From Ignavibacteriales bacterium (GTDB lineage: Bacteria; Bacteroidota; Ignavibacteria; UBA10030): a DNA stretch of 64,000 bases. Below the pieces are notes generated by a model, which was not told the DNA's origin, ran no database searches, and saw only the letters and a program-made list of their open reading frames with translations. The position numbers were made by a program, and so were the translations under genes. The stretch spans positions 5,340-69,339 of the forward strand of contig JAPLFQ010000011.1 of the NCBI GenBank assembly GCA_026390595.1, given 5' to 3'. Numbering within the stretch: the first letter of the stretch is position 1; the number at the start of each line of letters is the position of its first letter. Positions 8,601 through 63,374 of this stretch are shown here, in pieces.

Positions 8601-9011
8601 TATGGTCTTTCGTCCGATGATGAAATTCAGTCCATGCGGGATGAGCTGCGTGACCGGTTTGGGGAATATCCAGAGGAGGTGGAGAATCTGTTCGGCGTTG
8701 TCGAGCTCAAGACTATCGCCTCGAAGATCGGCTTCACGAAAGTTGAGATCCTCCGGAACCAGTTGTCCCTCTATTTTCCTTCTGCAGACGAAAAGAAGTT
8801 CTACGAAACGGACGACGGAGGTGTTCCCCCATTCCAACAGATCATGTCTCACATATCTACGTTGCGCCAGTATCGTGCCCATCTCAAGCAGGACGGTAAA
8901 CAGTTGAAACTGAATGCAACAATTCCGGGAGGACCCGATGCGCGCGCACTTCTCGCCTCGGTGAAGAGCTTGTTGACGACTTTCTCGACTCTCTCTTCCG
9001 GAACGGCATAG
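5610..9011 (+). CDS. mfd: transcription-repair coupling factor Mfd
   Basis: 1133 aa. Has a UvrB-homology N-terminal region, CarD/RID-like segment, SF2 motifs GDVGFGKTEVA, DEEHRFG and QLRGRVGR, and a TRCF C-terminal domain. Confidence 0.95.
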   Translation: MNVRMIEEIRKKIEGSEPFRNLLHRSKQLAAGENVAIRGINGSLMAFVAASLYDTRQTQVVLLTADKDRAEQLRDDCALLLGEHSVRLYAHGPSHKAAALDMTAPIAQVEALKALAAKETIVVVTSAEAITGLVPPPNEFKQRSFEITAGKDHPFEDLISQLIALGFERKDFVEEYGDFSVRGGILDVFPYVGDNPIRIEFWGDSIESIREFDALSQRSIRELQSASIVASLLPEQDGLAVHSSMLEYLANDALFIIDEPAAVQKEVEELFREGVQNILSWESLVEQSNHFPKILHSFISDSKHSEPIEFFSLQQPSVNGSIKVLLHQISELALEGNELVLVCDTHEEADRLKELLEEEFTTADSDGEESNTETAPAQAPHQPSYQMMTEALHLGFIYPPSRLALFTEHQVFGRLKRRGTSKRKRFKGFSQKEAQQLRRSDYVVHIDYGIGRFAGLQKLKVRGVDQEVMRVLYEGNDVLYVNLNFVNRVQKYASQEGHLPKLSKLGAPDWERLKSRARKRIKDIARELIALYARRRTEQGFAFAPDTHWQKELEASFMFEDTPDQAKATRDVKRDMELPSPMDRLICGDVGFGKTEVAVRAAFKSVLNGKQVAILVPTTILAQQHHNTFTDRVGRYSVRVESLSRFKSKKEQETTLEGLKAGTVDILIGTHRLLSKDVQFKDLGLLIIDEEHRFGVTAKEKLRHLRATVDTMTLTATPIPRTLQFSLMGARDLSLINTPPRNRLPILTEIAQFDPQLIREAILKELHRGGQVYFIHDRIHDIDDIQAMLHRKIPEAKFHVAHGQMKGHELEKAMMEFLEKKYDVLICTKIIESGIDIPSVNTIIINRADRFGLAELYQLRGRVGRSNEQAYAYLLTPPISSLPRITLRRLQAIQEFTELGSGFNLAMRDLEIRGAGNLLGAEQSGFIMEMGIEMYQRIVEEAVAELKEQEFEKLFQGAKAEARWRNGETTIDADVEAYIPDVFIESDSERLDFYRRLYGLSSDDEIQSMRDELRDRFGEYPEEVENLFGVVELKTIASKIGFTKVEILRNQLSLYFPSADEKKFYETDDGGVPPFQQIMSHISTLRQYRAHLKQDGKQLKLNATIPGGPDARALLASVKSLLTTFSTLSSGTA

Positions 9012-37008: not shown

Positions 37009-38109
37009 CTAGAAGATTTCCATCTGTGCATCGGCAGGTGAACGAAACTGGTCTGTCGAAAGTGACGCCTTCGCGTCGTTCAGGTGCAGCCGCTTGCAGA
37101 CTGTGTGGAACAGCTGCCCAATGGCCTCGGCAATTTGTCCCTCGCCCCTGAGCCGTTCGCCGAAGTCGGAGCATGAGAGGTTTCCGTTGCGGATGTCGCG
37201 TATGCGGTTAACAATTGCCGGAGCACGCTCGGGCATTTCCCGCTGCAGCCAATCGATGAACAGGTCCTTCACGGCATTGGGAAGCCGTACCATGGTAGAG
37301 CTGGCATACCTCGCCCCGCGGCGTGCGGCTTCCTGCACGATTGATGGAATCTCAGTGTCGTTCAAACCAGGGATGATCGGACACACGTTTACTCCGACAG
37401 GGATACCTGCCGTGGCAAGCATCTCGACCGTTTCAAGCCTCTTCGCCGGCGTGGATGTCCGCGGTTCCATCCGCCGGATGAGATCATGGTTGAGAGACGT
37501 GATACTGAGTGTGACAAGGACGAGATTGAGCGACGCGAGTTGTTTCAGGATATCGATATCACGCTGGACGAGCGCGTTCTTCGTGACGATCGAGACCGGA
37601 TTGCGGTATTGAAGAAAGACTTCAAGACATTTTCGCGTGAGTCCGAGTTTTCGCTCAATGGGCTGGTAACAATCGGTATCCCCGGACATCATGACGATTT
37701 GCGGCTTCCAGTTCCGGTTTCGGAATTGCTTTTCCAGGAGCACATGCGCATCGTGCTTGACCATGATCTTGGTCTCGAAGTCCAATCCTGAAGAGAAACC
37801 GAGATATTCGTGCGTCGGGCGCGCGTAACAATAGATACAACCACGCTCGCACCCGCGGTATGGATTCAGGCTGTACGTGAACGGGATATCGGGACTATCG
37901 TTTTTCGCGAGGATGGACTTTGTGTGATCGCTGTAGAATTTGGTGAGGACGTCTCGATCGGGCTCGGGATCTATGAAATACTGAGCCAGATCTTCCCCTA
38001 CTTTATCAACGGTGACGGATTCAAACCGGTTCGGAGGATTAAAACCCGCACCGCGTCCCTTTTTCATTTCTTCCCGTCTCACAATGCCTTCCTCTCGGGT
38101 TTGTTTCAC
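37009..38109 (-). CDS. radical SAM enzyme, PA0069 family (COG1533 SplB / DNA-repair-photolyase-like)
   Basis: KGRGAGFNPPNRFE N-terminus and a CERGCIYCY (CxxxCxxC) cluster. The start may be ATG 38067. Confidence 0.85.
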   Translation of the reverse strand: MKQTREEGIVRREEMKKGRGAGFNPPNRFESVTVDKVGEDLAQYFIDPEPDRDVLTKFYSDHTKSILAKNDSPDIPFTYSLNPYRGCERGCIYCYARPTHEYLGFSSGLDFETKIMVKHDAHVLLEKQFRNRNWKPQIVMMSGDTDCYQPIERKLGLTRKCLEVFLQYRNPVSIVTKNALVQRDIDILKQLASLNLVLVTLSITSLNHDLIRRMEPRTSTPAKRLETVEMLATAGIPVGVNVCPIIPGLNDTEIPSIVQEAARRGARYASSTMVRLPNAVKDLFIDWLQREMPERAPAIVNRIRDIRNGNLSCSDFGERLRGEGQIAEAIGQLFHTVCKRLHLNDAKASLSTDQFRSPADAQMEIF

Positions 38110-38110
38110 T

Positions 38111-38211
38111 CATGAATGGCACACTGATGACGCAGAAAATACACAAGATTGTCACTGATTGATGATCAGTGATCATCCTGTATCATCAGTGTCATCTGTG
38201 TGCTATTCATG
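38111..38211. repeat. ~100-nt imperfect palindrome (CATGAATGGCACAC...GTGTGCTATTCATG)
   Basis: The outer 14 nt pair with 1 mismatch and the inner arms pair imperfectly. Fills the rSAM-PolB spacer. Confidence 0.7.
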
Positions 38212-38276
38212 AAAATGACCACTCTCGGTTGATAAACTCCAAATTCTGAAAGTCTTGTCCGACCTATGGCACCTTC

Positions 38277-40607
38277 CTAGTTTCCCACCCGCATGTGCAA
38301 CAGCGGAATCTGTTTGGCCAAGGCCTCCGCACGCGCATGCAGCAGACGGCCACGCTTCGATGTTATCTTCTGTACCGGAGGCGTAAGGCCGAGTTCGTCC
38401 TTGAGCGTCTGCACATCGTACCCGAACGGAAAGAGCAGTGTCTCCGCCGCCTTCAACGCAAACTCCGTGTACTGTTCGATGTCGTACCCATCCTCGAACG
38501 CATACAGCGCGAGCGGCTTTGCTTTCTCCGGCTTCTTTTTCCCCGATTGATCGAGGATAATAAACTCGATCGATTCGCCGGCCGCGAGCGATACCCCCAT
38601 TCCCTGCACCAGCTTCGCGACAACGGCACTGAGGCTGTTGTTCGTGTACTCATCCGCCTCCTTGGTGATGTGACGGCGGAGAACCAACTCCATCGGGTTC
38701 GCCTTCCCGCTGCGTAGCACAGCAACGGCATTCCGTACAATCTCCACGAGATCGGGAACAAGCCCCCGTAGATCTTCAACGTTGTGCGCGCCAGACATCC
38801 GGTTCAGCATTGCCGTTTGCATGGTTTTGATAAACTTCGGTGTGTCGCGGCGTCGGGCTTCGATGCCACGGATCTTGATCTCGTCGTGGTGATACCACCC
38901 GACGTACCGGTTCGCCGTGGTGATCTCGGGATCGATTTTCGATGCGGGAAAGAGAATCCAGTTGTACATCCCCTCTAATGAAATATCGATACCCACTCTG
39001 CGGGAAATCGTACGGGCAAGCTCTTCGCACTCCTGTTCGGTCGCCCCCTCTTTCTTGATCCAGACACAATCGATGATGGCGTGAAGGAGATGAAACCCAT
39101 GCTCCTCGGCAATTTCTTTTGCCATCAGGATTGCGTCGCGGGAAAACGCGTTGACCGACTCGTGCGCCTCGATCTTCCCGAACCGTGCGTTCTTGTAGCC
39201 AAGATAGCCAAAGCAGCTGACGAGCATCCACTTCAGGGCGTTCTGGCGGCGGTCGTACTTCCGGAACAACACATCGTCCTTCCCCTTGTATTTCTTTTTC
39301 ATCGCCTTGTAGTACGCACGTTTCTCTACAACCGCCTTGAGCGTTGCAGGCACTATGCCTACGCGTTTTTCGCAAATCGAGTAGCCAAGCTCCGGCACCT
39401 TTTCGTTCTTGCAGCACCGGCAGTTCACCGTCTCCGGTGAAACGTTGTGTGTCACCATGATCGTCGGATACATCGATACAAAATCGAGTTCCGCCACCTC
39501 TTCATGATAGCCGAGCGGCGGGTTGAAGATGAGTCCACCCCGATCGGCCAGCAGGAGCGTTGCAGCCGATTTGAAATCTTCCGGCTCACGTTTTTTCGAC
39601 GGAATCAGGATATTGTGCTGGTACGCCCACGATAGCTGGAGTGACGACATCGACGTACCGATGCTTGCCCGCCCCTGCCGCTGGCCGCACATTTGCGTCA
39701 GGCGCGCCATCTCGAACAGGCCGTCCAGGTCCGCTTCGGCAACCGTCATCGAGTTGGTGGCATCCACATGCCATCGCCCGGCAAGCTCAAATGCACCATC
39801 TTTGTGGACAACCTTGCCGTACTGAAAGAAGCTCGATTCCTTCGTCGTTACATATCCCGCATCCTGATCGCGATTCAGCAGCAGCGGTACCTTGTGCTGT
39901 TGTGCCAGCGCTGTCAATTGCGGCATCAGGACTGCATCGCCGTAATCGGTCAGAATAATATCCGGATCGTACCGGTGCAGATGCCAGTTCAGCGATTCCA
40001 GAACCTCCTCTCCTGTTTCCTGTTCGAGCACATACGTGCGGTCCTCGTACGTCACCTCGAGCTGGAGACGCTTCTGGTACTTCGGCGGAACAAAATCGTT
40101 TCCGTTCCGGAGCAGCAGGATGGAAAACGGCGGGAGTGCATACTCCGTTGCTTCGCGTGAATCGCGCAGCCTCCACTCGATGAGTTCCTCCTGCTCATCG
40201 ATCTCATACTCGCCGAAGCCGAGCGGAAAGAGCGTCGTCGCGTATAAAAAAAGCTGCGGGACAAGGATATCGGAATTGAAGAACGCGAAGTGCGGAAAGA
40301 AGCGCTCGTAGTACCACACAACCTCGCGGAAACGCGTCGTGTCGTGTACGTGAATTTCGAGCACGTCGAGCAGCTCGCCGGAATAGATTTCTGTCTTCGT
40401 CGTGCGTGTGACCGTGACGGGAACCGGACAGCGCTCGGCAAGTACCTCGGCACGCCGGGCATCGGATGTGTTCAGGTGAAGAAAAAAGGAGGGCGTGAAC
40501 CTTCGAAAACAGCGGTGCTTCCCGCCGTTCTCATCGATGAACCAGAGCGTGATGCCCCGGGACGAAGGATAACAATCGAATAACCAACCGGTGAGTGTGT
40601 GGGGCAT
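38277..40607 (-). CDS. family-B DNA polymerase, exonuclease-inactivated, non-canonical motif C
   Basis: Motif A DFVSMYPT; motif B KWMLVSCFGYLGY; motif C HAIIDCVW in place of Y-x-DTD-G/S; RRRDTP and KxY-type regions present. Exo I (LLLRN for FDIE) and Exo II (YGDAVL for NGDNFD) lack the acidic residues. Confidence 0.9.
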   Translation of the reverse strand: MPHTLTGWLFDCYPSSRGITLWFIDENGGKHRCFRRFTPSFFLHLNTSDARRAEVLAERCPVPVTVTRTTKTEIYSGELLDVLEIHVHDTTRFREVVWYYERFFPHFAFFNSDILVPQLFLYATTLFPLGFGEYEIDEQEELIEWRLRDSREATEYALPPFSILLLRNGNDFVPPKYQKRLQLEVTYEDRTYVLEQETGEEVLESLNWHLHRYDPDIILTDYGDAVLMPQLTALAQQHKVPLLLNRDQDAGYVTTKESSFFQYGKVVHKDGAFELAGRWHVDATNSMTVAEADLDGLFEMARLTQMCGQRQGRASIGTSMSSLQLSWAYQHNILIPSKKREPEDFKSAATLLLADRGGLIFNPPLGYHEEVAELDFVSMYPTIMVTHNVSPETVNCRCCKNEKVPELGYSICEKRVGIVPATLKAVVEKRAYYKAMKKKYKGKDDVLFRKYDRRQNALKWMLVSCFGYLGYKNARFGKIEAHESVNAFSRDAILMAKEIAEEHGFHLLHAIIDCVWIKKEGATEQECEELARTISRRVGIDISLEGMYNWILFPASKIDPEITTANRYVGWYHHDEIKIRGIEARRRDTPKFIKTMQTAMLNRMSGAHNVEDLRGLVPDLVEIVRNAVAVLRSGKANPMELVLRRHITKEADEYTNNSLSAVVAKLVQGMGVSLAAGESIEFIILDQSGKKKPEKAKPLALYAFEDGYDIEQYTEFALKAAETLLFPFGYDVQTLKDELGLTPPVQKITSKRGRLLHARAEALAKQIPLLHMRVGN

Positions 40608-40632
40608 AAATTCAGCGGGATGATGAAAAATA

Positions 40633-40728
40633 AACCGCCAAGCACGCCAAGAACCGCAAAGAATAGATAGGGGTATTTCTGCAGGTCAACACTCCAACTA
40701 CCTAGCGTTCTTGGCGGACTTTGCGGTT
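40633..40728. repeat. word-type inverted repeat (AACCGCCAAG/GCCAAGAACCGCAAAG vs CGTTCTTGGCGGACTTTGCGGTT)
   Basis: Read directly in the spacer between PolB and the 91-aa gene. Confidence 0.55.
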
Positions 40729-40749
40729 CATCTTTGTTAACAAACAAAA

Positions 40750-41025
40750 TCACGGTTTCTCATCGGCGAGACGGCCTTCGAGCCGGACAATCCGATCCTG
40801 CAACTGGTTGATCAACTTTCGCTGCTCGACTGCAATGGAAACGACGATGCTCTCAAAGGGAATTGTCCGCATCGCATAAAAATTTTCCGCGAGGTGAAGT
40901 TTCGCCGCACGGAAGACATCGTCAAAGACGTTCTGGTCTTCTTTGCGAAGTCCCCGGCGGTATTTCGACCAGCTCGCAATTTCGCTGTCAATGATATTGG
41001 TAAACGTCGGGACAGTCCGCCCCAT
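40750..41025 (-). CDS. 91-aa protein of unknown function with a C-terminal coiled-coil-like helix
   Basis: Clean ORF immediately upstream of PolB on the same strand; no motif recognised. Confidence 0.55.
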   Translation of the reverse strand: MGRTVPTFTNIIDSEIASWSKYRRGLRKEDQNVFDDVFRAAKLHLAENFYAMRTIPFESIVVSIAVEQRKLINQLQDRIVRLEGRLADEKP

Positions 41026-41059
41026 ACCGATCGCTCCTTTCGTCTCCCATACTCATATT

Positions 41060-41150
41060 GTTTAACCACGGATCACACAGAAACCACACGGATTGCCACA
41101 GATTGTTTTGTCCGCGTAAATCCGTCACATCCGTGTCATCCGTGGTTATT
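41060..41150. repeat. CCACGGAT-family palindromic element, copy 1
   Basis: Terminal 10-bp perfect inverted repeat AACCACGGAT (41064-41073) / ATCCGTGGTT (41138-41147). Confidence 0.75.
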
Positions 41151-41167
41151 CTTTCCTGCGTTCATTC

Positions 41168-41542
41168 CTATTCGTCTTCGGCAAACGTCAGGATATATCC
41201 GTTGACGTCCTTGATGGAAAACTCCGTGGCTCCGTAAAACGTTTTTTCCAGTCCCTTGAGAACCGTGACTTTGTCTTTCACGCTTGTAAAAAAAACTCGG
41301 ATGTTCTTCAGCTTGATGTACAGCAGCAGCGAACCCCCATCGCGGCGGCTGACATCCGGCAACGCGTCACCCAGGCTGGTGAACGTCTGGAACATGAGAG
41401 AAACACTGCCGCAGGTCATCATCGCCCATACATAATCCCCCTGTTCGGGGACAGTCATGGCCAGCTCAAAGCCGAGGATTTTGTAAAACGCTATCGTTGC
41501 ATTCATGTCTTTTACAAAAATGTTTGGGGAGAGACTTTCCAT
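41168..41542 (-). CDS. VOC/glyoxalase-fold protein (bleomycin-resistance-like size)
   Basis: 124 aa with IFVKDMNATIAFYKILGFE and FSIKDVNGYILTF beta-alpha-beta-beta-beta modules. Confidence 0.8.
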   Translation of the reverse strand: MESLSPNIFVKDMNATIAFYKILGFELAMTVPEQGDYVWAMMTCGSVSLMFQTFTSLGDALPDVSRRDGGSLLLYIKLKNIRVFFTSVKDKVTVLKGLEKTFYGATEFSIKDVNGYILTFAEDE

Positions 41543-41590
41543 GGCTGCACCTTTTGTGTTGAGTGGGTGATGTTATGAACCAGGATTCGC

Positions 41591-41714
41591 TTTATCCATG
41601 TCAATCCGTAACAATCTGTGTTATCCGTGGTTGCTTTGTGTTTAACCACGGATTACACGGAAACAGCACGGATGATCACAGATTTGTTTAATCCGTGTCT
41701 TCTGTGGTTAATTT
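41591..41714. repeat. CCACGGAT-family palindromic element, copy 2
   Basis: Shares 43 + 14 identical nt with copy 3. Overlaps the last codons of the GxxExxY ORF. Confidence 0.75.
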
Positions 41715-42098
41715 CGATGCCTTTCGGTCATTCGTGAGGATTCGCCTGACGATCTGAGGTTTAGGCCCAAAGTTTAGCAACAACCCTACTTCAATCTCAG
41801 TGCTTTTTAAGTAGTTGATCAGCTGAGCTTCATGTTCGGGAGCAAGAACTTCTGCTGCTTTCAATTCCAGGACAACACAATCATTCACTACAAGATCTGC
41901 ATAGTAATCACCTACTCGTTGCGCGTCATAGAAAACTTCTACTCGTTTCTGTTGCTCACTGATCAATCCTTTCTTCCGCAGCTCGATCGCCAGGGCATTT
42001 TCATACACCTTCTCAAGAAAACCATAACCTAAACCATTGTAGACGGTATAGAAAGCGCTGATGATCTTTCCTGTGAGTGCTTCGTGTATCATAGACAT
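41688..42098 (-). CDS. GxxExxY protein (PD-(D/E)xK nuclease-like family)
   Basis: GYGFLEKVYENAL (G-x-x-E-x-x-Y), D..V....VLELK core, and NYL..T....GLLLNFG. Confidence 0.9.
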   Translation of the reverse strand: MSMIHEALTGKIISAFYTVYNGLGYGFLEKVYENALAIELRKKGLISEQQKRVEVFYDAQRVGDYYADLVVNDCVVLELKAAEVLAPEHEAQLINYLKSTEIEVGLLLNFGPKPQIVRRILTNDRKASKLTTEDTD

Positions 42099-42106
42099 GC
42101 TCCCTC

Positions 42107-42285
42107 ATCCATATCAATCTGTGTCATCCATGGTTGCTTTGTGTTTAACCACGGATTACACGGAAACAGCACGCCTGCCTGCCGAAGTGCCTTCGGCACG
42201 CAGGCAGGGATGATCACAGATTCATTTTCATCCGTGTAAATCTGTAACGATCCGCGTCATCCGTGGTTGCTTTGTCTTTATCCGC
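42107..42285. repeat. CCACGGAT-family palindromic element, copy 3, carrying a nested 35-nt hairpin insertion (42174-42208)
   Basis: 42131-42173 is identical to 41628-41670. 42209-42222 is identical to 41671-41684. Confidence 0.75.
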
Positions 42286-42937
42286 GCAGCGAGCGCTGGC
42301 CGGTCATCGTTCCTTTCTCCAGCAATACCACCGGTCGATTGGTGCCATCGTCTGTGAGCCGGTAGATCGTATCCATCCCGGTCTTGAGCGTCGTGAACAA
42401 CTGGTTGCGCTCCTTCGGCAGGACGTTCCACTCCGTGCATGCCAGCAGCACGGAAACGCCGTTTCCTTTGATATCCTGCAATGTCCCGAGCAGCCGCCGC
42501 AGAATTTGCTGCACTTCCCGGAACGACGCCTGTTCGTCATAGAATGTGTCGAGCAAGCCGAAGATCATCGCGATGTTTGAGCCAATGGACTCGAGAAACA
42601 GCGGCAACCGCGCACTGACCGCCTGCTCCATCTGGTAACAGGTAAAACCGCGGGAAATGAAAATGCGGCGCAGGAATTCATCCGGGTCGATGCGCCGCTC
42701 ACGCGCAAAGCGGGAGAGCAGATGCACATTGAACCGGTTACACCCATCCACCACCGCAACGGAACTCCCCTGTGTCATCGCATGGGCCGCCATCCTGAGT
42801 GAGAGATTGAAGATGAACTTGTCGCCGTACAATAGACAGACCTTGCCCGGGGGCGCAACAAATGATTGGACCAGCGCCTGGGAAGCGATGGGGCCTGGAA
42901 GATGTCCGGCATCCGAAGAGAACATCATAGCTGTCAC
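42278..42937 (-). CDS. RecA/RadB-fold protein with a degenerate Walker A (ImuA-like candidate)
   Basis: LLYGDKFIFNLSL occupies the place of G-x-x-G-x-GK-T/S. VVDGCNRFN, RIFISRGFTCYQ and VLLAC strands follow the RecA/Rad51-paralog pattern. Confidence 0.55.
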   Translation of the reverse strand: MTAMMFSSDAGHLPGPIASQALVQSFVAPPGKVCLLYGDKFIFNLSLRMAAHAMTQGSSVAVVDGCNRFNVHLLSRFARERRIDPDEFLRRIFISRGFTCYQMEQAVSARLPLFLESIGSNIAMIFGLLDTFYDEQASFREVQQILRRLLGTLQDIKGNGVSVLLACTEWNVLPKERNQLFTTLKTGMDTIYRLTDDGTNRPVVLLEKGTMTGQRSLRG

Positions 42938-42956
42938 TTCCTAGGTCAGCGTAGTA

Positions 42957-42985
42957 TTGACATAAGGGAAAGAATTATATATACT
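42957..42985 (+). promoter_or_regulatory. sigma-70-like promoter TTGACA-17nt-TATACT for the RHH-MazF-SRAP genes
   Basis: Read directly. An ATACT-N6-AGTAT palindrome (about 42981-42996) lies over and after the -10. Confidence 0.4.
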
Positions 42986-43020
42986 ATTGTCAGTATAATT
43001 ATCTATCTGAAGGTGGTTCT

Positions 43021-43263
43021 ATGCAAAAGGTCATGCTCACCCTGCCGGACGATCTCCTTGAGGAAATTGCCCGCGCCATGCAGCACAGCCAACAGAATCG
43101 GAGCGCGTTCGTCCGTCAAGCCGTGCGCGAGCACGTCGACCGTCTGAAGAAGAAAGAACGAGAGCAATTGATGGCCGAAGGATATTGCGAACAAGCTAAA
43201 GAAAACAAGCGCGACGCCAAAGCATACCTGAGAACAACTCGCGATCTCGGAGAAGACAAATAA
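43021..43263 (+). CDS. ribbon-helix-helix (CopG/MazE-type) antitoxin
   Basis: MQKVMLTLPDDLLEEI...RSAFVRQAV RHH motif. Its TAA overlaps the toxin ATG (TAATG). Confidence 0.75.
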   Translation: MQKVMLTLPDDLLEEIARAMQHSQQNRSAFVRQAVREHVDRLKKKEREQLMAEGYCEQAKENKRDAKAYLRTTRDLGEDK

Positions 43264-43616
43264 TGCCGTTCAAACGGGGTGATATTGTCTTGCTGCCATT
43301 CCCGTACGTTCAGAACTACAAAAAGGGGAAAACCCGCCCAGCACTCGTCGTCCAGAATAACATTGCAAACGAGTTTAGCCCCAATGTGATCGTGGCTTTG
43401 ATCTCTTTGGCCCTTCCGTCAAAAGCGTACCCAATGCATTTCTTGATTGACCTTGACGCCGAACCTCGCTGCGGACTAACCAAGAATTCAATTGTTAAAT
43501 CAGAGGTTGTCATCACGATTCCCAAAGAGGCCGTGGTACGAAAGTTGGGATCTCTGTCCAGCATGGCAATGAAAAGCGTCGACGAGTGTCTTCGAATAAG
43601 CCTGGCACTCGATTAA
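43263..43616 (+). CDS. MazF/PemK-family endoribonuclease toxin
   Basis: RGDIVLLPFP...GKTRPALVVQ signature; 117 aa. Confidence 0.85.
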   Translation: MPFKRGDIVLLPFPYVQNYKKGKTRPALVVQNNIANEFSPNVIVALISLALPSKAYPMHFLIDLDAEPRCGLTKNSIVKSEVVITIPKEAVVRKLGSLSSMAMKSVDECLRISLALD

Positions 43617-43639
43617 CTCTCTCACCCCCTTCACACCTT

Positions 43640-44359
43640 ATGTGCGGCCGCTACGCCATTATCGATGGAAAAAAAGTGCTTGTCGCCTACACGGCACTCA
43701 ACAAAGCGAAGATTACAGACACAGTGTTTCAAGAACTTCCGCTCTACAACGCTGCTCCCATGCAGCGCCTCCCCGTGTTTGCCGTCCGGCACGACGAGCT
43801 CGTTGCAGAACCGATGCAATGGTGGCTGATTCCTCACTGGTCAAAAGACGGAAAACCGGCGTTCTCCTCTTTCAACGCCAAAGCCGAAACGCTGGACCAG
43901 AGCAAGCTGTTCGCCACCTATTTCAAAGGAAGCCGCTGTCTCATTCCCGCCGATGCGTTCTACGAATGGCAGCGTGTGACAACAACGCAAGAGGTCCGCG
44001 GCAAGTCAAAGAAGGTTGAAGAAAAACATCCCATGTGCATCCGCATGAAGGACGAGGCCCCCATGCTGCTTGCCGGATTGTTTTCCATCTGGAAGGATGC
44101 AACGGGAAACGAGCGCCCCACGTTCACGATCATCACCACCGAACCGAACGAGTTGATGGCCCCGATTCATAACCGTATGCCCGTCATCCTGCCGGAACAG
44201 CACATCGAACAGTGGCTCGACCGGTCGTATAAGGACACCGCGAACCTTAAACAACTCCTCGCCCCCTACCCGGCAAAAAAGATGAAAGCCCACCGCGTTT
44301 CATCATTCGTCAGCAATCCGCGCAATGAGTCGGCGGAGTGTATGAAAGAGGTGGAATAG
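43640..44359 (+). CDS. SOS-response-associated peptidase (SRAP / YedK-HMCES family)
   Basis: The start MCGRY gives the catalytic Cys2. Also AAPMQ, WWLIPHW, FNAKAET, CLIPADAFYEW and MAPIHNRMPVIL. Confidence 0.9.
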   Translation: MCGRYAIIDGKKVLVAYTALNKAKITDTVFQELPLYNAAPMQRLPVFAVRHDELVAEPMQWWLIPHWSKDGKPAFSSFNAKAETLDQSKLFATYFKGSRCLIPADAFYEWQRVTTTQEVRGKSKKVEEKHPMCIRMKDEAPMLLAGLFSIWKDATGNERPTFTIITTEPNELMAPIHNRMPVILPEQHIEQWLDRSYKDTANLKQLLAPYPAKKMKAHRVSSFVSNPRNESAECMKEVE

Positions 44360-44406
44360 AAATCAGCGGCCTGCCCTGAGCGAGCTTCTTTTGCGAGTCG
44401 AAGGGT

Positions 44407-44455
44407 CAGCAATTAGCTTGTAGCCAACAGCTAATAGCTATCAGCTAAAAGCCGC
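44407..44455. repeat. heptamer array CAGCAAT TAGCTTG TAGCCAA CAGCTAA TAGCTAT CAGCTAA AAGCCGC
   Basis: Seven in-phase [CT]AGCNNN units read directly. Confidence 0.7.
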
Positions 44456-44468
44456 ATGTTTATACCTG

Positions 44469-45398
44469 TTACGCCACCTCCGCAAACAACGGATGCTGCA
44501 CGTTGACCGGCGCGCTGATCTGTTTCAGCGCGGGAAACGCTGCGACAAGATTCTGCGGCACGAGAACGCGGTGCTTATGGCGCACCAGATGCCGCAGCTG
44601 AAATCCGTTCACCAGTGAATTCGCCTCCGGGTCGTTGTGAAAAACGACAAAGGTCGTGCTGCCGCGCTGCCGCATCTGTTCAATCAGCGCGAGCAAATCT
44701 CCGAGTTCGCGGTCGTTGTACAGATAACGGTACCGGTCGCTGACAAGGTAGTTTCCGCTCTGGTGCTTCGTGAACGGACGATCCCACGTCATCACGTTTC
44801 TCCCCATCATCCGGAAGTATGCTGCACCGTTCCACGACTGACTCGTGAACGGCATATGCTGCTTGATGCCCGGCAGATCGACATTCACCATGTGGAGTTT
44901 GTTTTCCTGGAAGAAGTTGTACATCAACGGGCTGTTCCAGGAATTGTGCCGGACTTCCACAAACAGCCGATGTGGCTGGAACGCTTTTGCAAGCTGCATC
45001 AGGTACGTGCGGCGTTCACCGATGTTGGTAAAGGAATACGGGAACTGGATGAGGAGCCCTCCCAGTTTCCCGGCCGCAGCGAGGGGCTCCAGCATGCGGT
45101 GCACGGCCCGTACATCGCCGTAATCGGCTGTGTAGGTATGCGTAAATCCGTTGAAAAGCTTTACGGTAAAAATAAAATCCTTGTTCCCCGATACATCCGT
45201 CAGCCACCGCCGCGCATGGGCGGGCGACAGCGACGTGTTATAGAAGGTGGCGTTGATCTCGACGCTGTCGAAAAACTGGCTGTAGTACTCCAGCTTCCGA
45301 AAATCCTTTCTGGGACGCGGCGGATAAAAGACCTTGCTGAACGGCTCCAGATCCCATCCCCCCATCCCGACGAAGATTTTTTCCCGATCAAGATTCAT
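44469..45398 (-). CDS. DUF72 (YecE/UPF0759) family protein
   Basis: GMGGWDLEPF...FYPP, LEYYSQFFDSVEINATFY and FIFTVK. Confidence 0.9.
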   Translation of the reverse strand: MNLDREKIFVGMGGWDLEPFSKVFYPPRPRKDFRKLEYYSQFFDSVEINATFYNTSLSPAHARRWLTDVSGNKDFIFTVKLFNGFTHTYTADYGDVRAVHRMLEPLAAAGKLGGLLIQFPYSFTNIGERRTYLMQLAKAFQPHRLFVEVRHNSWNSPLMYNFFQENKLHMVNVDLPGIKQHMPFTSQSWNGAAYFRMMGRNVMTWDRPFTKHQSGNYLVSDRYRYLYNDRELGDLLALIEQMRQRGSTTFVVFHNDPEANSLVNGFQLRHLVRHKHRVLVPQNLVAAFPALKQISAPVNVQHPLFAEVA

Positions 45399-45514
45399 AG
45401 CGCCTCTCCTTCTCTGATCTGTGGTTTCCGAAAAGCGTTAAAATTATTACGCAAAGACGCGAAGAAAGATTTTAGAGTGAATCCCGACTTTGCGTGAGAT
45501 GCTTTTAAAAATAC

Positions 45515-45619
45515 TTGACAGCAACCGGAAATTTGCCTATCTTTGCCTGACCAATCATACGACATTTTTGTCGTCTTGTCAAGAAGAAAGTTGACAAAAT
45601 TGTCATTTGGGAATATTAC
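45515..45619. promoter_or_regulatory. divergent promoter region with two NGACA-N4-TGTCN palindromes (45560-45573, 45592-45605) and TTGACA-17-TATTAC (45591-45619)
   Basis: CGACATTTTTGTCG and TGACAAAATTGTCA read directly. The second overlaps the -35/spacer of a good sigma-70-like promoter facing the S24 repressor gene. Confidence 0.45.
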
Positions 45620-45721
45620 ACTACCAAGACACAAAGAACAGCGTCTATCGACTAACCGCCAATTAACCAATCACCATTTAACCAAAGGTTCTTCTCGCTC
45701 TTCCACGCGAAGGATTTTCTC

Positions 45722-46372
45722 ATGAAGCATACCATTGCACAACGGATCCGTCAGGCACGCACAGAGAAAGAAATGGACCAGGCAAAACTCGCTGCGAAGC
45801 TCGATGTAGCGGTGCGCACTGTGCAGCGATGGGAAAAAGGGGAGCAGGTGCCCGATAGCAATTACCTCATGCGTATCGCGAAGGTCACGGGCGTGGCGCC
45901 GCATTGGCTCCTCGCGGGCGCCGGCGAGATGTACGCCACGTCGCAGGGGGAATCGAAAATCATTCCATTGCCGACCAGCCGCTACAAGCGCGTGGAGCTC
46001 GTCTCGCTCCCGCTCCTCTCCTCCGTCCCAGGCGGCGCGCCGAGCTTGATGTTCCATCCCGACTACGTGGAGAAGTACATCACGGTCGACGACATCAAGG
46101 ATTCAAACGCGTTCGCGTTGGAGGTAAAAGGAAACAGCATGGCGCCGCGCATCGAAGACGGCGACATCATTGTCGTCAGTCCGAAGCTCGAGTCGCGCAC
46201 CGGGGACATCTGCGTGGTGCGCATAAACGAAGAGGATACAGTGAAGCGGGTTAAAATTGAAGATCAGTTCATCCATCTCATACCGCTGAATCAGGAATAT
46301 GAACCGATGGCGGTACGAAAGAAGGATGTGTCGTTTATGTGGAGAGTGGTGAAGGTGATCAAAAGCGTCTAG
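45722..46372 (+). CDS. XRE-HTH + S24 peptidase repressor (LexA/CI-like, self-cleaving type)
   Basis: The N-terminal HTH (IRQARTEKEMDQAKLAAKLDVAVRTVQRWEKG), an AG candidate cleavage site (LLAGAGE), the Ser in GNSMAP and the Lys in VKRV. Confidence 0.85.
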   Translation: MKHTIAQRIRQARTEKEMDQAKLAAKLDVAVRTVQRWEKGEQVPDSNYLMRIAKVTGVAPHWLLAGAGEMYATSQGESKIIPLPTSRYKRVELVSLPLLSSVPGGAPSLMFHPDYVEKYITVDDIKDSNAFALEVKGNSMAPRIEDGDIIVVSPKLESRTGDICVVRINEEDTVKRVKIEDQFIHLIPLNQEYEPMAVRKKDVSFMWRVVKVIKSV

Positions 46373-46386
46373 GGTGGTTCTGGATA

Positions 46387-46491
46387 GTGAACAGTAAATA
46401 GTGAACAGTTGCAACGGTGTACTGTTTTCTGTTCACGATGATGAATTTCTTTCACCCCCACGTCTCCCGTCTTACGTCTCACGTCTTCTTT
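46387..46491. repeat. 15-unit heptamer-phased array (GTGAACA GTAAATA GTGAACA ... CTCCCGT CTTACGT CTCACGT CTTCTTT)
   Basis: Phase 7 is held across 105 nt. The left words are the reverse complement of the middle words (GTGAACA / CTGTTCA). The 3' words recur at 33402-33425. Confidence 0.7.
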
Positions 46492-59877: not shown

Positions 59878-60074
59878 TGACCCTTCAAGAACGGCTCCGC
59901 AGCGAAGCGCGAATGTGTCCGAAATGTCAGTACATTGTCGACAATCCATTCCTTGAACGATGCCCCCGATGCTTGAGCGAAGTACCTGTTGTCGACGTCG
60001 GTTGCCGCGCCTGTATGCACAACGCGGGATGTCCGGCATCGAATCTCCGCAAGTCCGAATCGAAATCAGCCTGA
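59874..60074 (+). CDS. 66-aa Cys-rich (zinc-ribbon-like) protein translationally coupled to feoB
   Basis: The ATG overlaps the feoB TGA (ATGA). CPKC-x12-CPRC-x11-CRAC-x5-C. Confidence 0.55.
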   Translation: MMTLQERLRSEARMCPKCQYIVDNPFLERCPRCLSEVPVVDVGCRACMHNAGCPASNLRKSESKSA

Positions 60075-60088
60075 ACACAGGAAGTCCA

Positions 60089-60994
60089 ATGTCCGCTCGA
60101 AATATGTCGCGAGGAACAACCGAAAGTTCATCATCAAGCGCAACACACAAGCAGAGGGGAATGATCCGTGCGTGCGTTCTGATATTCTGCCTCGTAGGCA
60201 CAGAAGCCGCTGTCATCGCGCAGGAGTCACGACCTCCAAAAGAACAATTCCCTGAGGCCATCGAAGATAATTCCTTCTTCATCGAGGAAGCCTACAATCA
60301 GGAACGAGGTGTAGTGCAACACATCTCTAATCTGCAGTACTCCTTCACACATCAGACGGACCTTTTCTATACATTCACACAAGAGTGGCCTCTCGGTGGC
60401 AGGGCGCACCAGTTGAGTTATACAGTTCCAATTAACCTGCACAGTTCGTCTCATCCGGGTGGATTCGGGGACGTCCTGATCAATTATCGGTATCAACTGA
60501 TTGACGACGACGGATGGGCTGCCGTTGCCCCCCGGATCTCGGTACTTCTCCCCACGGGAAGCACGACGTCGGGACTCGGCTTCGGGGCGGCCGGAGTTCA
60601 GGTCAACATTCCCGCAAGCAGACGGTTTTCGGAGTTTTTCGCTGCCCACGCGAACGCGGGGCTTACCTACGTGCCCCGCATGAAAGACGAGAGCGGAAAT
60701 TCAGGCGCGATCAGGCATACACTGACATCCTATAATGTCGGCGCAAGCGTCATCTGGCTGACATCCGAGACATTCAACGTGATGCTCGAGTACACGACCA
60801 GTTTCTCATCGGATGCATTTGAGGATGGAACCAGCGATCGGAGGACGGATACAATTATCAGTCCCGGATTACGCTGGGCGATTAATCTGAACACGCTGCA
60901 GATTGTGCCGGGCATCGCGTTCCCCATCTCGCTGGGGAGCGGCCAGGCAAAGGCGGGAGTGTTTTTCTATCTCTCCTTCGAGCATCCCTTCTAG
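60089..60994 (+). CDS. outer-membrane beta-barrel protein (MetA-pathway/transporter-like family)
   Basis: Signal peptide, FFIEEAYNQERGVVQH near the N-terminus, alternating beta-strand pattern, and a C-terminal aromatic residue (EHPF). Confidence 0.55.
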   Translation: MSARNMSRGTTESSSSSATHKQRGMIRACVLIFCLVGTEAAVIAQESRPPKEQFPEAIEDNSFFIEEAYNQERGVVQHISNLQYSFTHQTDLFYTFTQEWPLGGRAHQLSYTVPINLHSSSHPGGFGDVLINYRYQLIDDDGWAAVAPRISVLLPTGSTTSGLGFGAAGVQVNIPASRRFSEFFAAHANAGLTYVPRMKDESGNSGAIRHTLTSYNVGASVIWLTSETFNVMLEYTTSFSSDAFEDGTSDRRTDTIISPGLRWAINLNTLQIVPGIAFPISLGSGQAKAGVFFYLSFEHPF

Positions 60995-62171: not shown

Positions 62172-62744
62172 ATGAGAAGAATAATTTCATTTATGCACAT
62201 ATCGCTTGACGGTTTTGTAGCAGGACCGAACGGAGAAATGGACTGGATTAAAGCTAATGAAGAGATTTTTGATTATGTCGGTAAGCGGATAAGCGAAGGC
62301 GACACTGCATTATATGGACGAGTGACTTATCAGATGATGGAAAATTACTGGCCTGCCGCAGGAGACAAGCCGACAGCAACCAAGCACGACATTGAACATT
62401 CTCAGTGGTATAACAAAGTTCACAAAATTGTTTTATCGAAAACAATGAAAGACGCGGGTTTGACTAACACAAAAATTATTAACGACAACCTTTCGGACAG
62501 AATAAATGAAATAAAACAACAGGCAGGTAAAGACGTCTTGCTTTTTGGTAGCCCGACAGCAACACATTCACTCGTTCAACTGAACTTAATTGACGGCTAC
62601 TGGCTATTTGTTAATCCAATTATTCTTGGACGAGGAATTCCATTGTTTGTAGACATCAAAAACAAAATAAAACTAAACCTATTGAGTACTCGACAATTTA
62701 CTTGCGGGGTAACTGAACTGAATTACACTGTGGACAGACAATAA
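62172..62744 (+). CDS. dihydrofolate-reductase-like (RibD C-terminal domain) family protein
   Basis: MRRIISFMHISLDGFVAGPNGEMDWI and LLFGSPT. Confidence 0.85.
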   Translation: MRRIISFMHISLDGFVAGPNGEMDWIKANEEIFDYVGKRISEGDTALYGRVTYQMMENYWPAAGDKPTATKHDIEHSQWYNKVHKIVLSKTMKDAGLTNTKIINDNLSDRINEIKQQAGKDVLLFGSPTATHSLVQLNLIDGYWLFVNPIILGRGIPLFVDIKNKIKLNLLSTRQFTCGVTELNYTVDRQ

Positions 62745-62894: not shown

Positions 62895-63374
62895 TTGTGT
62901 GCACCCAAGGAGAATCAGGCGAAATCTCGCAATCTTGTTTACAGCAATCATTCTCGCAGCCTGCAGCACGACTCCAGTCACGCGCAGTCATCGCAGGCCG
63001 TGAGTCCCACTCAGGTACTTGCTCCTGAACTGCAGAACACGTCAATAGATTCGGTCGTGCAATTTTTGCTCACGGCAGCCGCTACCGATTTCCATACCCA
63101 CCGCCCGCCTGATCCTGTCCGCTTTCGTGATGTGCGCATTGGTCACGTGATGACTCCCAGTGGAAAAGAGCTTTACATGTTGTGCGGCCAGTTTCTACCG
63201 GCGCAGGAGGGAGACAAGGCTGAGTGGACGCCTTTTGCGACGATCAAGACATCGAGGTACGAACAATGGATTGGGGCGCAAGCCCTGACGTTTAGCCAAG
63301 GGCCATCGGTCATATGGGACACGGTGGGCGATCTGTCGTCCTTGTTGCAGAGCCGACTCGATTCTCTGCGATAA
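62895..63374 (+). CDS. hypothetical protein (possibly a frameshifted lipoprotein)
   Basis: ORF with plausible globular composition. A lipobox-bearing signal peptide (NLAILFTAIILAAC) lies in the adjacent frame just upstream. Confidence 0.4.
   Translation: MCAPKENQAKSRNLVYSNHSRSLQHDSSHAQSSQAVSPTQVLAPELQNTSIDSVVQFLLTAAATDFHTHRPPDPVRFRDVRIGHVMTPSGKELYMLCGQFLPAQEGDKAEWTPFATIKTSRYEQWIGAQALTFSQGPSVIWDTVGDLSSLLQSRLDSLR

Follow-up and report, generated by a model that had tools for sequence, protein, structure and literature searches.

Within a 64,000-nt window of genomic DNA from an Ignavibacteriales bacterium (GenBank assembly GCA_026390595.1, contig JAPLFQ010000011.1; coordinates below are those of the window), the genes around positions 37009-46372 very probably form a bacterial (Ignavibacteriota/FCB-group) copy of the published PolB2 mutasome operon, in which an inactivated RadA (iRadA), a small helical protein (PPB2) and a family-B DNA polymerase (PolB2) are encoded in that order. 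An initial annotation of this DNA, made without database searches, had proposed a PolB-based damage-tolerance or mutagenic module with a RecA-fold partner and a small protein, and the same proposal is found in the literature (PMC4104785, PMC11791011); its statement that the module was not known to be characterised has to be withdrawn, as the operon has been in print since 2014 and a mutasome model since 2025. The trio was reported in bacteria, together with lexA, by Makarova 2014 (PMC4104785), and Timinskas, Timinskas and Venclovas 2025 (PMC11791011) modelled the mutasome as a PolB2:iRadA:PPB2x3 assembly, in which a PolB2 β-α loop mimics RadA oligomerisation and a D(K/R) contact is made, with a clamp-binding motif on either PolB2 or iRadA. 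The latter study defines the three components as an inactivated RadA, a three-helix PPB2 (formerly arCOG07300) with an N-terminal MGRT arm, and a PolB2 that lacks the proofreading site and in which the first motif C Asp is usually substituted, as in the IID of Sulfolobus islandicus Dpo2; it further gives iRadA-PPB2-PolB2, with other genes sometimes interspersed, as the sole bacterial order and describes bacterial PolB2 neighborhoods as enriched in lexA, SRAP and DUF72, the last of these published as a relative of UV-damage endonuclease. Its supplement lists Ignavibacteriales and Bacteroidota operons with a near-identical motif C segment (HAIIDCVWL) and a DUF72 neighbor. Because the traits of PolB2, iRadA and PPB2, their synteny and the published supplement all match, the core at hand belongs to a described family in an already catalogued lineage. 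The core trio is thus not new to the literature; what is new, relative to the literature found, is the radical S-adenosylmethionine (rSAM) gene behind PolB2 and the ACGACA-N4-TGTCGT operator, and the hairpin-flanked small genes within the operon are likewise undescribed there.

Each open reading frame (ORF) of the initial annotation was found where it had been placed, and its domain calls were borne out by Pfam and NCBIfam profile searches of the window proteins, on which the assignments below rest unless otherwise indicated. PolB2 (38277-40607, minus strand) is matched by the DNA_pol_B model only. In a MAFFT alignment of the window protein with KOD polymerase (reference sequence identical to PDB 1WNS), nine relatives and an archaeal homologue, the motif A Asp and the motif B Lys are kept, whereas the DTD of motif C in KOD has become IID in the window and IID or IVD across ten complete bacterial sequences. 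The Exo II Asp (KOD D215) is replaced by Leu in the window and by Leu or another hydrophobic residue in the relatives, the exonuclease domain is some 45 residues shorter, and PF03104, the exonuclease model, stays below its cut-off at 12.8 bits (E 0.076). The claim that this polymerase lacks the exonuclease acidic residues therefore stands for Exo II, with the PF03104 score and the shortened domain at its side, but not for the Exo I alignment originally offered, since the MAFFT placement of both Exo I and Exo III against KOD is unreliable. It had also been asked whether the protein would group with ordinary Pol II enzymes: its best similarity is to archaeal PolBs (1e-45), with E. coli Pol II far behind (3K57, 4e-5), and Pol II models score at most 69 bits on it against cut-offs of at least 570. 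The protein ends in QIPLLH, where relatives carry QIPLF or QELPLF, and to judge from its sequence the QIPLF-type tail is likely a clamp contact; no clamp-type motif was seen on inspection of the window iRadA tail.

The same substitutions can be read as those of a catalytically dead pseudo-polymerase, with the trio in a structural or regulatory role at stalled forks or in replication control, as first suggested in 2014: the first motif C Asp is lost, the Lys of the KxY motif is replaced and the exonuclease site is gone, and PolB2 was proposed to be inactivated on its original description (PMC4104785). We regard this as improbable. Genetic and biochemical data on the archaeal PolB2 (Dpo2) show a damage-induced enzyme that functions as an extender and is needed for targeted mutagenesis (PMC7390963, PMC8764526), and the S. 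islandicus protein that is active in this way carries the very same IID. Retained catalysis is further argued by the strict conservation, across the PolB2 relatives, of the motif A Asp, the motif B Lys and the second motif C Asp.

The second component, iRadA, is called as a 216-aa gene (42278-42928, minus strand) within a 219-aa ORF (42278-42937); neither this ORF nor that of PPB2 (40750-41025) found a family in the local profile libraries. A profile built from 16 iRadA sequences retrieved only RadA/Rad51/DMC1 matches from the PDB (best 1.5e-8), and an AlphaFold2 model (predicted local distance difference test score 83.7, predicted template-modelling score 0.82) superimposes on the ATPase cores of RadA, DMC1 and Rad51 with template-modelling (TM) scores of 0.67-0.75, bacterial RecA being absent among its top 50 structural matches. 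What remains is a RadA/Rad51-fold core without the N-terminal domain and without Walker A, the position of which reads GDKFIFNLS instead of GxxGxGKT. The destroyed P-loop noted initially is thus real (no GKT), but sequence profile and predicted model alike identify the protein as an inactivated RadA of archaeal type, not as a bacterial RecA or ImuA.

This distinction weighs directly on the idea that the locus is a novel ImuABC-like system, with a PolB in place of DnaE2 and an ImuA homologue as the RecA-like protein. Common to both are an error-prone polymerase, a partner that has the RecA fold but no ATPase motifs, and the vicinity of SRAP and S24 repressor genes; yet this partner resembles RadA/Rad51, not RecA/ImuA, the family to which the trio belongs is already published with this lineage in its catalogue, and an archaeal locus (Bathyarchaeia, L072) holds the same three genes at 33/26/35% identity (iRadA/PPB2/PolB2). 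As had been noted from the start, the locus has neither a Y-family ImuB nor a DnaE2: no IMS/Y-family or Pol III alpha domain, hence no Y-family or C-family polymerase, was found there. We give the ImuABC-like reading hardly any credence. The functional side of the original ImuABC analogy holds, whereas the published analogy is to Pol V and the RecA-fold partner is no relative of ImuA.

PPB2 (40750-41025, minus strand; 91 aa, arCOG07300 family) begins with MGRTVPTF, of which M1, G2, R3, T4, P6, T7 and F8 are invariant in 25 homologues, and its model consists of a free arm (residues 1-7) followed by three helices (8-24, 28-50 and 57-88); the Bathyarchaeia arm reads GRTIPSF. All 120 listed PPB2 homologues (717 found) carry the precomputed Pfam family PF26485, so that a curated family for PPB2 apparently already exists. 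In many relatives (L010, L014, L024, L028, L040, L041, L049, L065) the iRadA frame extends beyond the PPB2 start codon in a different frame, and the iRadA tail ...YGTNRTxLYQ of these loci is the +2 translation of the PPB2 MGRTVPTFT codons, an overlap which at the level of sequence suggests translationally coupled genes. The window has no such overlap because of the insertions described below. One iRadA homologue (P0271, 359 aa) was called as a fusion with a glyoxalase domain.

The closest relatives of the locus are metagenome-assembled genomes of Ignavibacteriota and Bacteroidota. Among 79 genome loci gathered for synteny, gene order could be scored in the 46 with at least 4 kb of upstream DNA, and iRadA-PPB2-PolB2 stands in that order in 43 of them, an arrangement far beyond chance. 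The neighborhood check proposed with the initial annotation, which asked for co-occurrence of the RecA-like, 91-aa, PolB and rSAM genes, therefore succeeds for the first three, while the rSAM gene proves to be lineage-specific and not universal. Elsewhere among the related loci, L012, L013 and L076 have no iRadA or PPB2 upstream of PolB2, both genes lying some 6 kb downstream in L076, and instead carry strong ACGACA-N4-TGTCGT boxes directly upstream of the polymerase gene (L012:9328-9378, L013:833-852, L076:9928-9947); the operon seems to have been rearranged or reduced there, with the operator retained.

In the window the core is interrupted. Between iRadA and PPB2 lies an insertion zone (41064-42268, minus strand) with two genes, a glyoxalase/bleomycin-resistance-like one (41168-41542) and a GxxExxY/PDDEXK_3 one (41688-42098), both on the minus strand; these are the two cassette genes of the initial annotation, and they are indeed insertions. 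Eight copies of one palindrome arm (AACCACGGATGACACGGA / TCCGTGTAATCCGTGGTTAAAC) bound the two genes, with no copy elsewhere in the 64 kb; two 67-nt junction copies, 94% identical (41604-41670 and 42107-42173), flank the GxxExxY gene, the last codons of which are themselves the palindrome arm. Among close relatives the hairpin occurs empty, beside the glyoxalase gene alone or together with both inserted genes; L001, L002 and L003 have fewer inserted genes than the window, or none. Each of the five spacers in the string (5/5) folds into a hairpin of some 100 nt (z -4.2 to -6.5), and these are the longest hairpins of the window. That between PolB2 and the rSAM gene (38110-38212, minus strand, an imperfect hairpin of 103 nt) has 34-nt arms and a z of -5.9, that between PPB2 and PolB2 (40626-40735, minus strand, imperfect, about 110 nt) has 29-nt arms and a z of -4.2, and their sequences differ. 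None of the five spacer hairpins carries a terminator T-tract, and no known RNA family was detected in the window; the hairpins might serve in RNA stability or processing, or as a recombination site.

Such features invite the view that the gene string is no functional unit at all, but a mobile or cassette region, whether an integron-like array, a toxin-antitoxin or defence island, or a self-replicating element built on PolB. Long hairpins in every spacer are concentrated at the locus; cassette-type genes (glyoxalase, GxxExxY and an RHH-MazF pair) lie inside it, and relatives carry Fic and PIN toxin insertions; and the repeat forms imperfect hairpins with single bulged bases, its right arm terminating in GTTAAAC, which resembles the R' of attC (GTTRRRY). 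The left arm, however, reads AAGCAAC where R'' would be RYYYAAC, and behind the first two of the three right arms stands an additional left arm without a partner, so that an identification of the hairpins as attC sites was rejected as unproven. No integron integrase occurs among the annotated ORFs, and genes for Cas1 or a terminal protein are likewise absent from the vicinity; on either side stand housekeeping genes (M28 peptidase, amylase, CNNM transporter, GH20, FeoB); IMG/VR holds no viral relatives of PolB2; and PADLOC reports no defence system, its sole match, of the polymerase to an intein-containing model, being spurious. The core order, moreover, is kept over 59-94% PolB2 identity while the inserted genes differ, which is the pattern expected of a conserved operon that tolerates insertions. 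We therefore consider the mobile-region reading very unlikely and retain that of a conserved PolB2 mutasome operon.

Other genes occur within the operon of several relatives (L003:1167-2327, L009:1709-2872, L015:9113-9747, L052:8153-8830, L068:9070-9498 and L008:11536-12534). They include a Fic-motif protein (HPFGDGNGRTAR) encoded between PPB2 and PolB2 in the opposite orientation; elsewhere, in the same interval, a short ORF and behind it one of 133 aa, which on a reading of its sequence resembles a PIN/VapC-like toxin; a GxxExxY gene between iRadA and PPB2; and a 332-aa ORF between PolB2 and the rSAM gene. Small selfish genes seem to have entered the operon repeatedly in this lineage.

The regulatory part of the locus centers on a repressor of the 'non-canonical LexA' type (45722-46372, plus strand), with a helix-turn-helix (HTH) domain of the XRE type (HTH_3 1e-12, Phage_CI_repr 1e-7) and a Peptidase_S24 domain (9e-26) in which the catalytic Ser (GNSM) and Lys (TVKR) are present and conserved. 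It is divergent from a gene for a DUF72 TIM-barrel protein (44469-45398, minus strand), and the palindromic operators reported near it in the initial annotation are real and common to both genes: a strong one at 45557-45576 (ATACGACATTTTTGTCGTCT, ACGACA-N4-TGTCGT, with a perfect ACGACATTTTTGTCGT core), which at 30.5 bits is the sole strong site in 64 kb, and a second, weaker one at 45589-45608 (AGTTGACAAAATTGTCATTT), 32 bp from the first. The strong operator separates the -35 and -10 elements of a σ70-like promoter that reads toward DUF72 and follows closely after the σ70-like promoter of the repressor gene, the operator region overlapping the promoters of both directions; the two-box layout recurs in relatives. 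Palindrome enumeration over upstream regions, followed by weight-matrix and regular-expression scans, placed ACGACA-N4-TGTCGT upstream of the S24 gene in 21/25 loci, usually twice, and ahead of iRadA in about 27 of 57; across the related loci (1.28 Mb) every site of at least 18 bits stands before an S24, iRadA, DUF72 or PolB2 gene. As boxes precede iRadA also in loci without a nearby repressor gene, action in trans is suggested. A further operator-like sequence with one mismatch (GCGACATCATTGTCGT, 13.5 bits, 46161-46176) lies within the repressor coding region, in the codons for GDIIVVS, and is probably there by chance. In the Latescibacterota locus L040, whose PolB2 is 67% identical to that of the window, a palindrome of the classical LexA-box type (GAACAAATGTTC) precedes iRadA (~8990-9010); in another phylum the operon thus appears to answer to a repressor-operator pair of a different kind.

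For the family as a whole, the case for damage control of the trio is good; in this genome we infer such control from the sequences of sister lineages, since the window operators stand only at the repressor and DUF72 promoters. Residues ~102-108 of the repressor, which span its cleavage site, show Gly-Gly also in L001, L007, L008, L015, L022, L023, L026, L027, L029, L033, L034, L042 and L052, and the remaining related loci have Ala-Gly at that position. Most of the Gly-Gly loci examined have no operator within 200 nt upstream of iRadA; L015, L022, L033 and L034 have both.

The last gene of the string encodes a PA0069-family rSAM protein of the COG1533/SplB group (37009-38109, minus strand), starting at GTG 38109 or at a Met 14 codons downstream. 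It scores 468 bits against NF033668 (cut-off 360; profile positions 1-348), and its CxxxCxxC motif reads GCERGCIYC. In 15/69 genome loci the gene behind PolB2, in the same orientation, encodes the rSAM protein, two more loci have it within 5 kb, and the gap between the two genes is 9-27 nt in several relatives. In the reverse test, which started from the rSAM protein and covered 80 metagenome loci, mostly from one lineage, copies at least 61% identical to that of the window stand directly behind PolB2 in 10/10 loci with at least 2.5 kb of upstream DNA, and in three more cases, on short contigs, a partial PolB2 immediately precedes the rSAM gene; of the less similar copies for which upstream DNA was available, none (0/37) is placed in this way. 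PA0069 belongs to the 15 SOS genes of Pseudomonas aeruginosa, splB/COG1533 recurs in SOS regulons and in Bacteroidetes is, like SRAP, part of the SOS regulon of XRE-S24 repressors (PMC8565304), and Table S1 of PMC11791011 records Radical_SAM in 65 of 1823 PolB2 neighborhoods, without discussion. The rSAM gene is therefore no universal component, but a recruitment, specific to one Ignavibacteriota subclade, of an otherwise stand-alone SOS gene. Evidence that the linkage reflects a shared regulon or pathway is good; that for a physical role in the mutasome is weak.

Two bolder propositions, taken together, are tentative at best: that in one Ignavibacteriota subclade the rSAM gene is a fixed fourth gene of the operon working with the mutasome, and that the repressor and its operator constitute a third class of non-canonical LexA. 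Were both true, the rSAM enzyme might, for example, carry out a radical-based reversal or processing of a lesion that is then passed by the extender polymerase, beyond mere sharing of a regulon, and the repressor would form a class outside the Bacteroidetes classes of 2021, dedicated to or centered on PolB2/DUF72 genes.

In light of these results and the published data on the family, we propose that bacteria acquired iRadA-PPB2-PolB2 from archaea and that PolB2 would be catalytically active despite its IID, and without proofreading, by analogy with archaeal Dpo2. As in the modelled complexes, it may bind one iRadA and a PPB2 trimer whose MGRT arm would enter beside the active site, and, by the same kind of analogy, the complex could be recruited to the β clamp through the C-terminal QxxLF-type tail and, like Dpo2, extend mismatched or lesion-opposed primer ends, with error-prone damage tolerance as the outcome. 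A self-cleaving XRE-HTH/S24 repressor on ACGACA-N4-TGTCGT would confer damage-inducible control, acting in the window on its own gene and on DUF72 and in sister lineages directly before iRadA or PolB2. SRAP, DUF72 and the PA0069-type rSAM enzyme would then be damage-processing genes of the same type of regulon, gathered beside the operon.

It is important to note that several observations weigh against this assignment or against parts of it. Neither the window nor its closest relatives have an operator, by regular expression or weight matrix, before iRadA, PPB2, PolB2, the rSAM gene or SRAP, and the repressor cleavage site of the window is Gly-Gly (VPGGAPS), whereas sister clades have Ala-Gly (VPAGALS), as does LexA. 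Because two foreign genes and five hairpins intervene, with spacers of 142-179 nt, co-transcription of the string is not certain. The Exo I and Exo III regions of PolB2 lack a reliable alignment, the clamp-type motif is degenerate in the window (QIPLLH vs. QIPLF), and the literature searched holds no experimental study of any bacterial PolB2.

The remaining features of the locus lie mostly on its repressor-proximal side. An SRAP/YedK-type abasic-site peptidase gene (43640-44359, plus strand) most likely starts at ATG 43640 (MCGRY...) and not at the ORF start 43586, and with this corrected start the catalytic Cys2 ascribed to it holds. Between SRAP and iRadA lie, both on the plus strand, a ribbon-helix-helix (RHH) antitoxin gene (43021-43263) and a PemK/MazF toxin gene (43263-43616); among the 79 genome loci the pair occurs only in L004, and L052 has a lone RHH gene. 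A TGACA-N25-TGTCA sequence (42957-42992) overlaps a near-consensus σ70-like promoter of RHH-MazF (TTGACA-17-TATACT), and as this promoter lies within the 83-bp region common to the divergent iRadA, the toxin-antitoxin promoter and its likely autoregulation may influence iRadA expression. Between the repressor gene and the convergent amylase gene stands a palindrome with 28-nt arms and no loop (46384-46439; ATAGTGAACAGTAAATAGTGAACAGTTG / CAACGGTGTACTGTTTTCTGTTCACGAT), the left arm of which holds the direct repeat ATAGTGAACAG twice. Farther away, the segment 60000-63500 has a G+C of 0.43-0.49, against ~0.54 elsewhere in the window, and may be foreign; its low-G+C ORFs are 59960-60994 and 62895-63374, neither with a Pfam family, and 62172-62744 (RibD_C).

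Knowledge of the bacterial PolB2 mutasome comes solely from comparative genomics and structure prediction, and while the locus presented here adds little to the concept, it offers experimental handles: a defined repressor-operator pair for probing damage induction, a natural variation between lineages with an operator before iRadA and lineages with none, and a repressor cleavage site that differs naturally between Ala-Gly and Gly-Gly. The tight coupling of the rSAM gene to a translesion polymerase is in addition a lead to the function of PA0069, an uncharacterised SOS gene of P. aeruginosa.

Set against known systems, the locus shares with E. coli Pol II a family-B polymerase and, putatively, SOS inducibility, extender behavior and a C-terminal β-clamp motif, but Pol II acts as a single subunit, retains its exonuclease and the DTD motif, and is only a distant relative of the window PolB2. 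The likeness of its predicted architecture to E. coli Pol V (UmuD'2C-RecA) lies in an error-prone polymerase, a RecA-family protein, a small subunit whose arm is predicted from models to reach the active site, control of the S24/LexA type and putative use of the clamp; Pol V, however, combines a Y-family polymerase with an active RecA and a UmuD' dimer, and has no sequence relation to PolB2 or PPB2. The ImuA-ImuB-DnaE2 cassette likewise pairs a RecA-fold protein without normal ATPase motifs with an SOS-linked error-prone polymerase and frequently has SRAP and LexA neighbors, whereas its Y-family ImuB and C-family DnaE2 are absent here and iRadA is of the RadA/Rad51 type.

The repressor, in turn, agrees with the non-canonical LexA family of Sanchez-Osuna et al. 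2021 (PMC8565304), reported as exclusive to Bacteroidetes, in domain architecture, in its Ser/Lys dyad and, to judge from its operators, in autoregulation through paired palindromic boxes; the regulon of that family includes splB (COG1533) and SRAP (COG2135). The window repressor differs from that family in its operator, ACGACA-N4-TGTCGT as opposed to GGA-N5-TCC or CTAA-N5-TTAG, and in a Gly-Gly cleavage site instead of Ala-Gly (or Cys-Gly). The rSAM protein passes the NF033668 cut-off and has the CxxxCxxC motif of the PA0069/Rv2578c family; members of that family normally stand alone, and in the window and one subclade the gene follows directly on PolB2. The closest correspondence is with the PolB2 mutasome itself. 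The window differs from it in a repressor with an XRE/CI-type HTH in place of the LexA winged helix, a PA0069-type rSAM gene behind PolB2, and inserted genes, two of them hairpin-flanked between iRadA and PPB2 and a toxin-antitoxin pair between SRAP and iRadA. What the two have in common is the IID motif, the dead exonuclease, a RadA core without Walker A, an MGRT arm followed by three helices, the sole bacterial gene order, a tail that resembles the clamp-motif type in degenerate form, and SRAP, DUF72 and a LexA-type regulator as neighbors.

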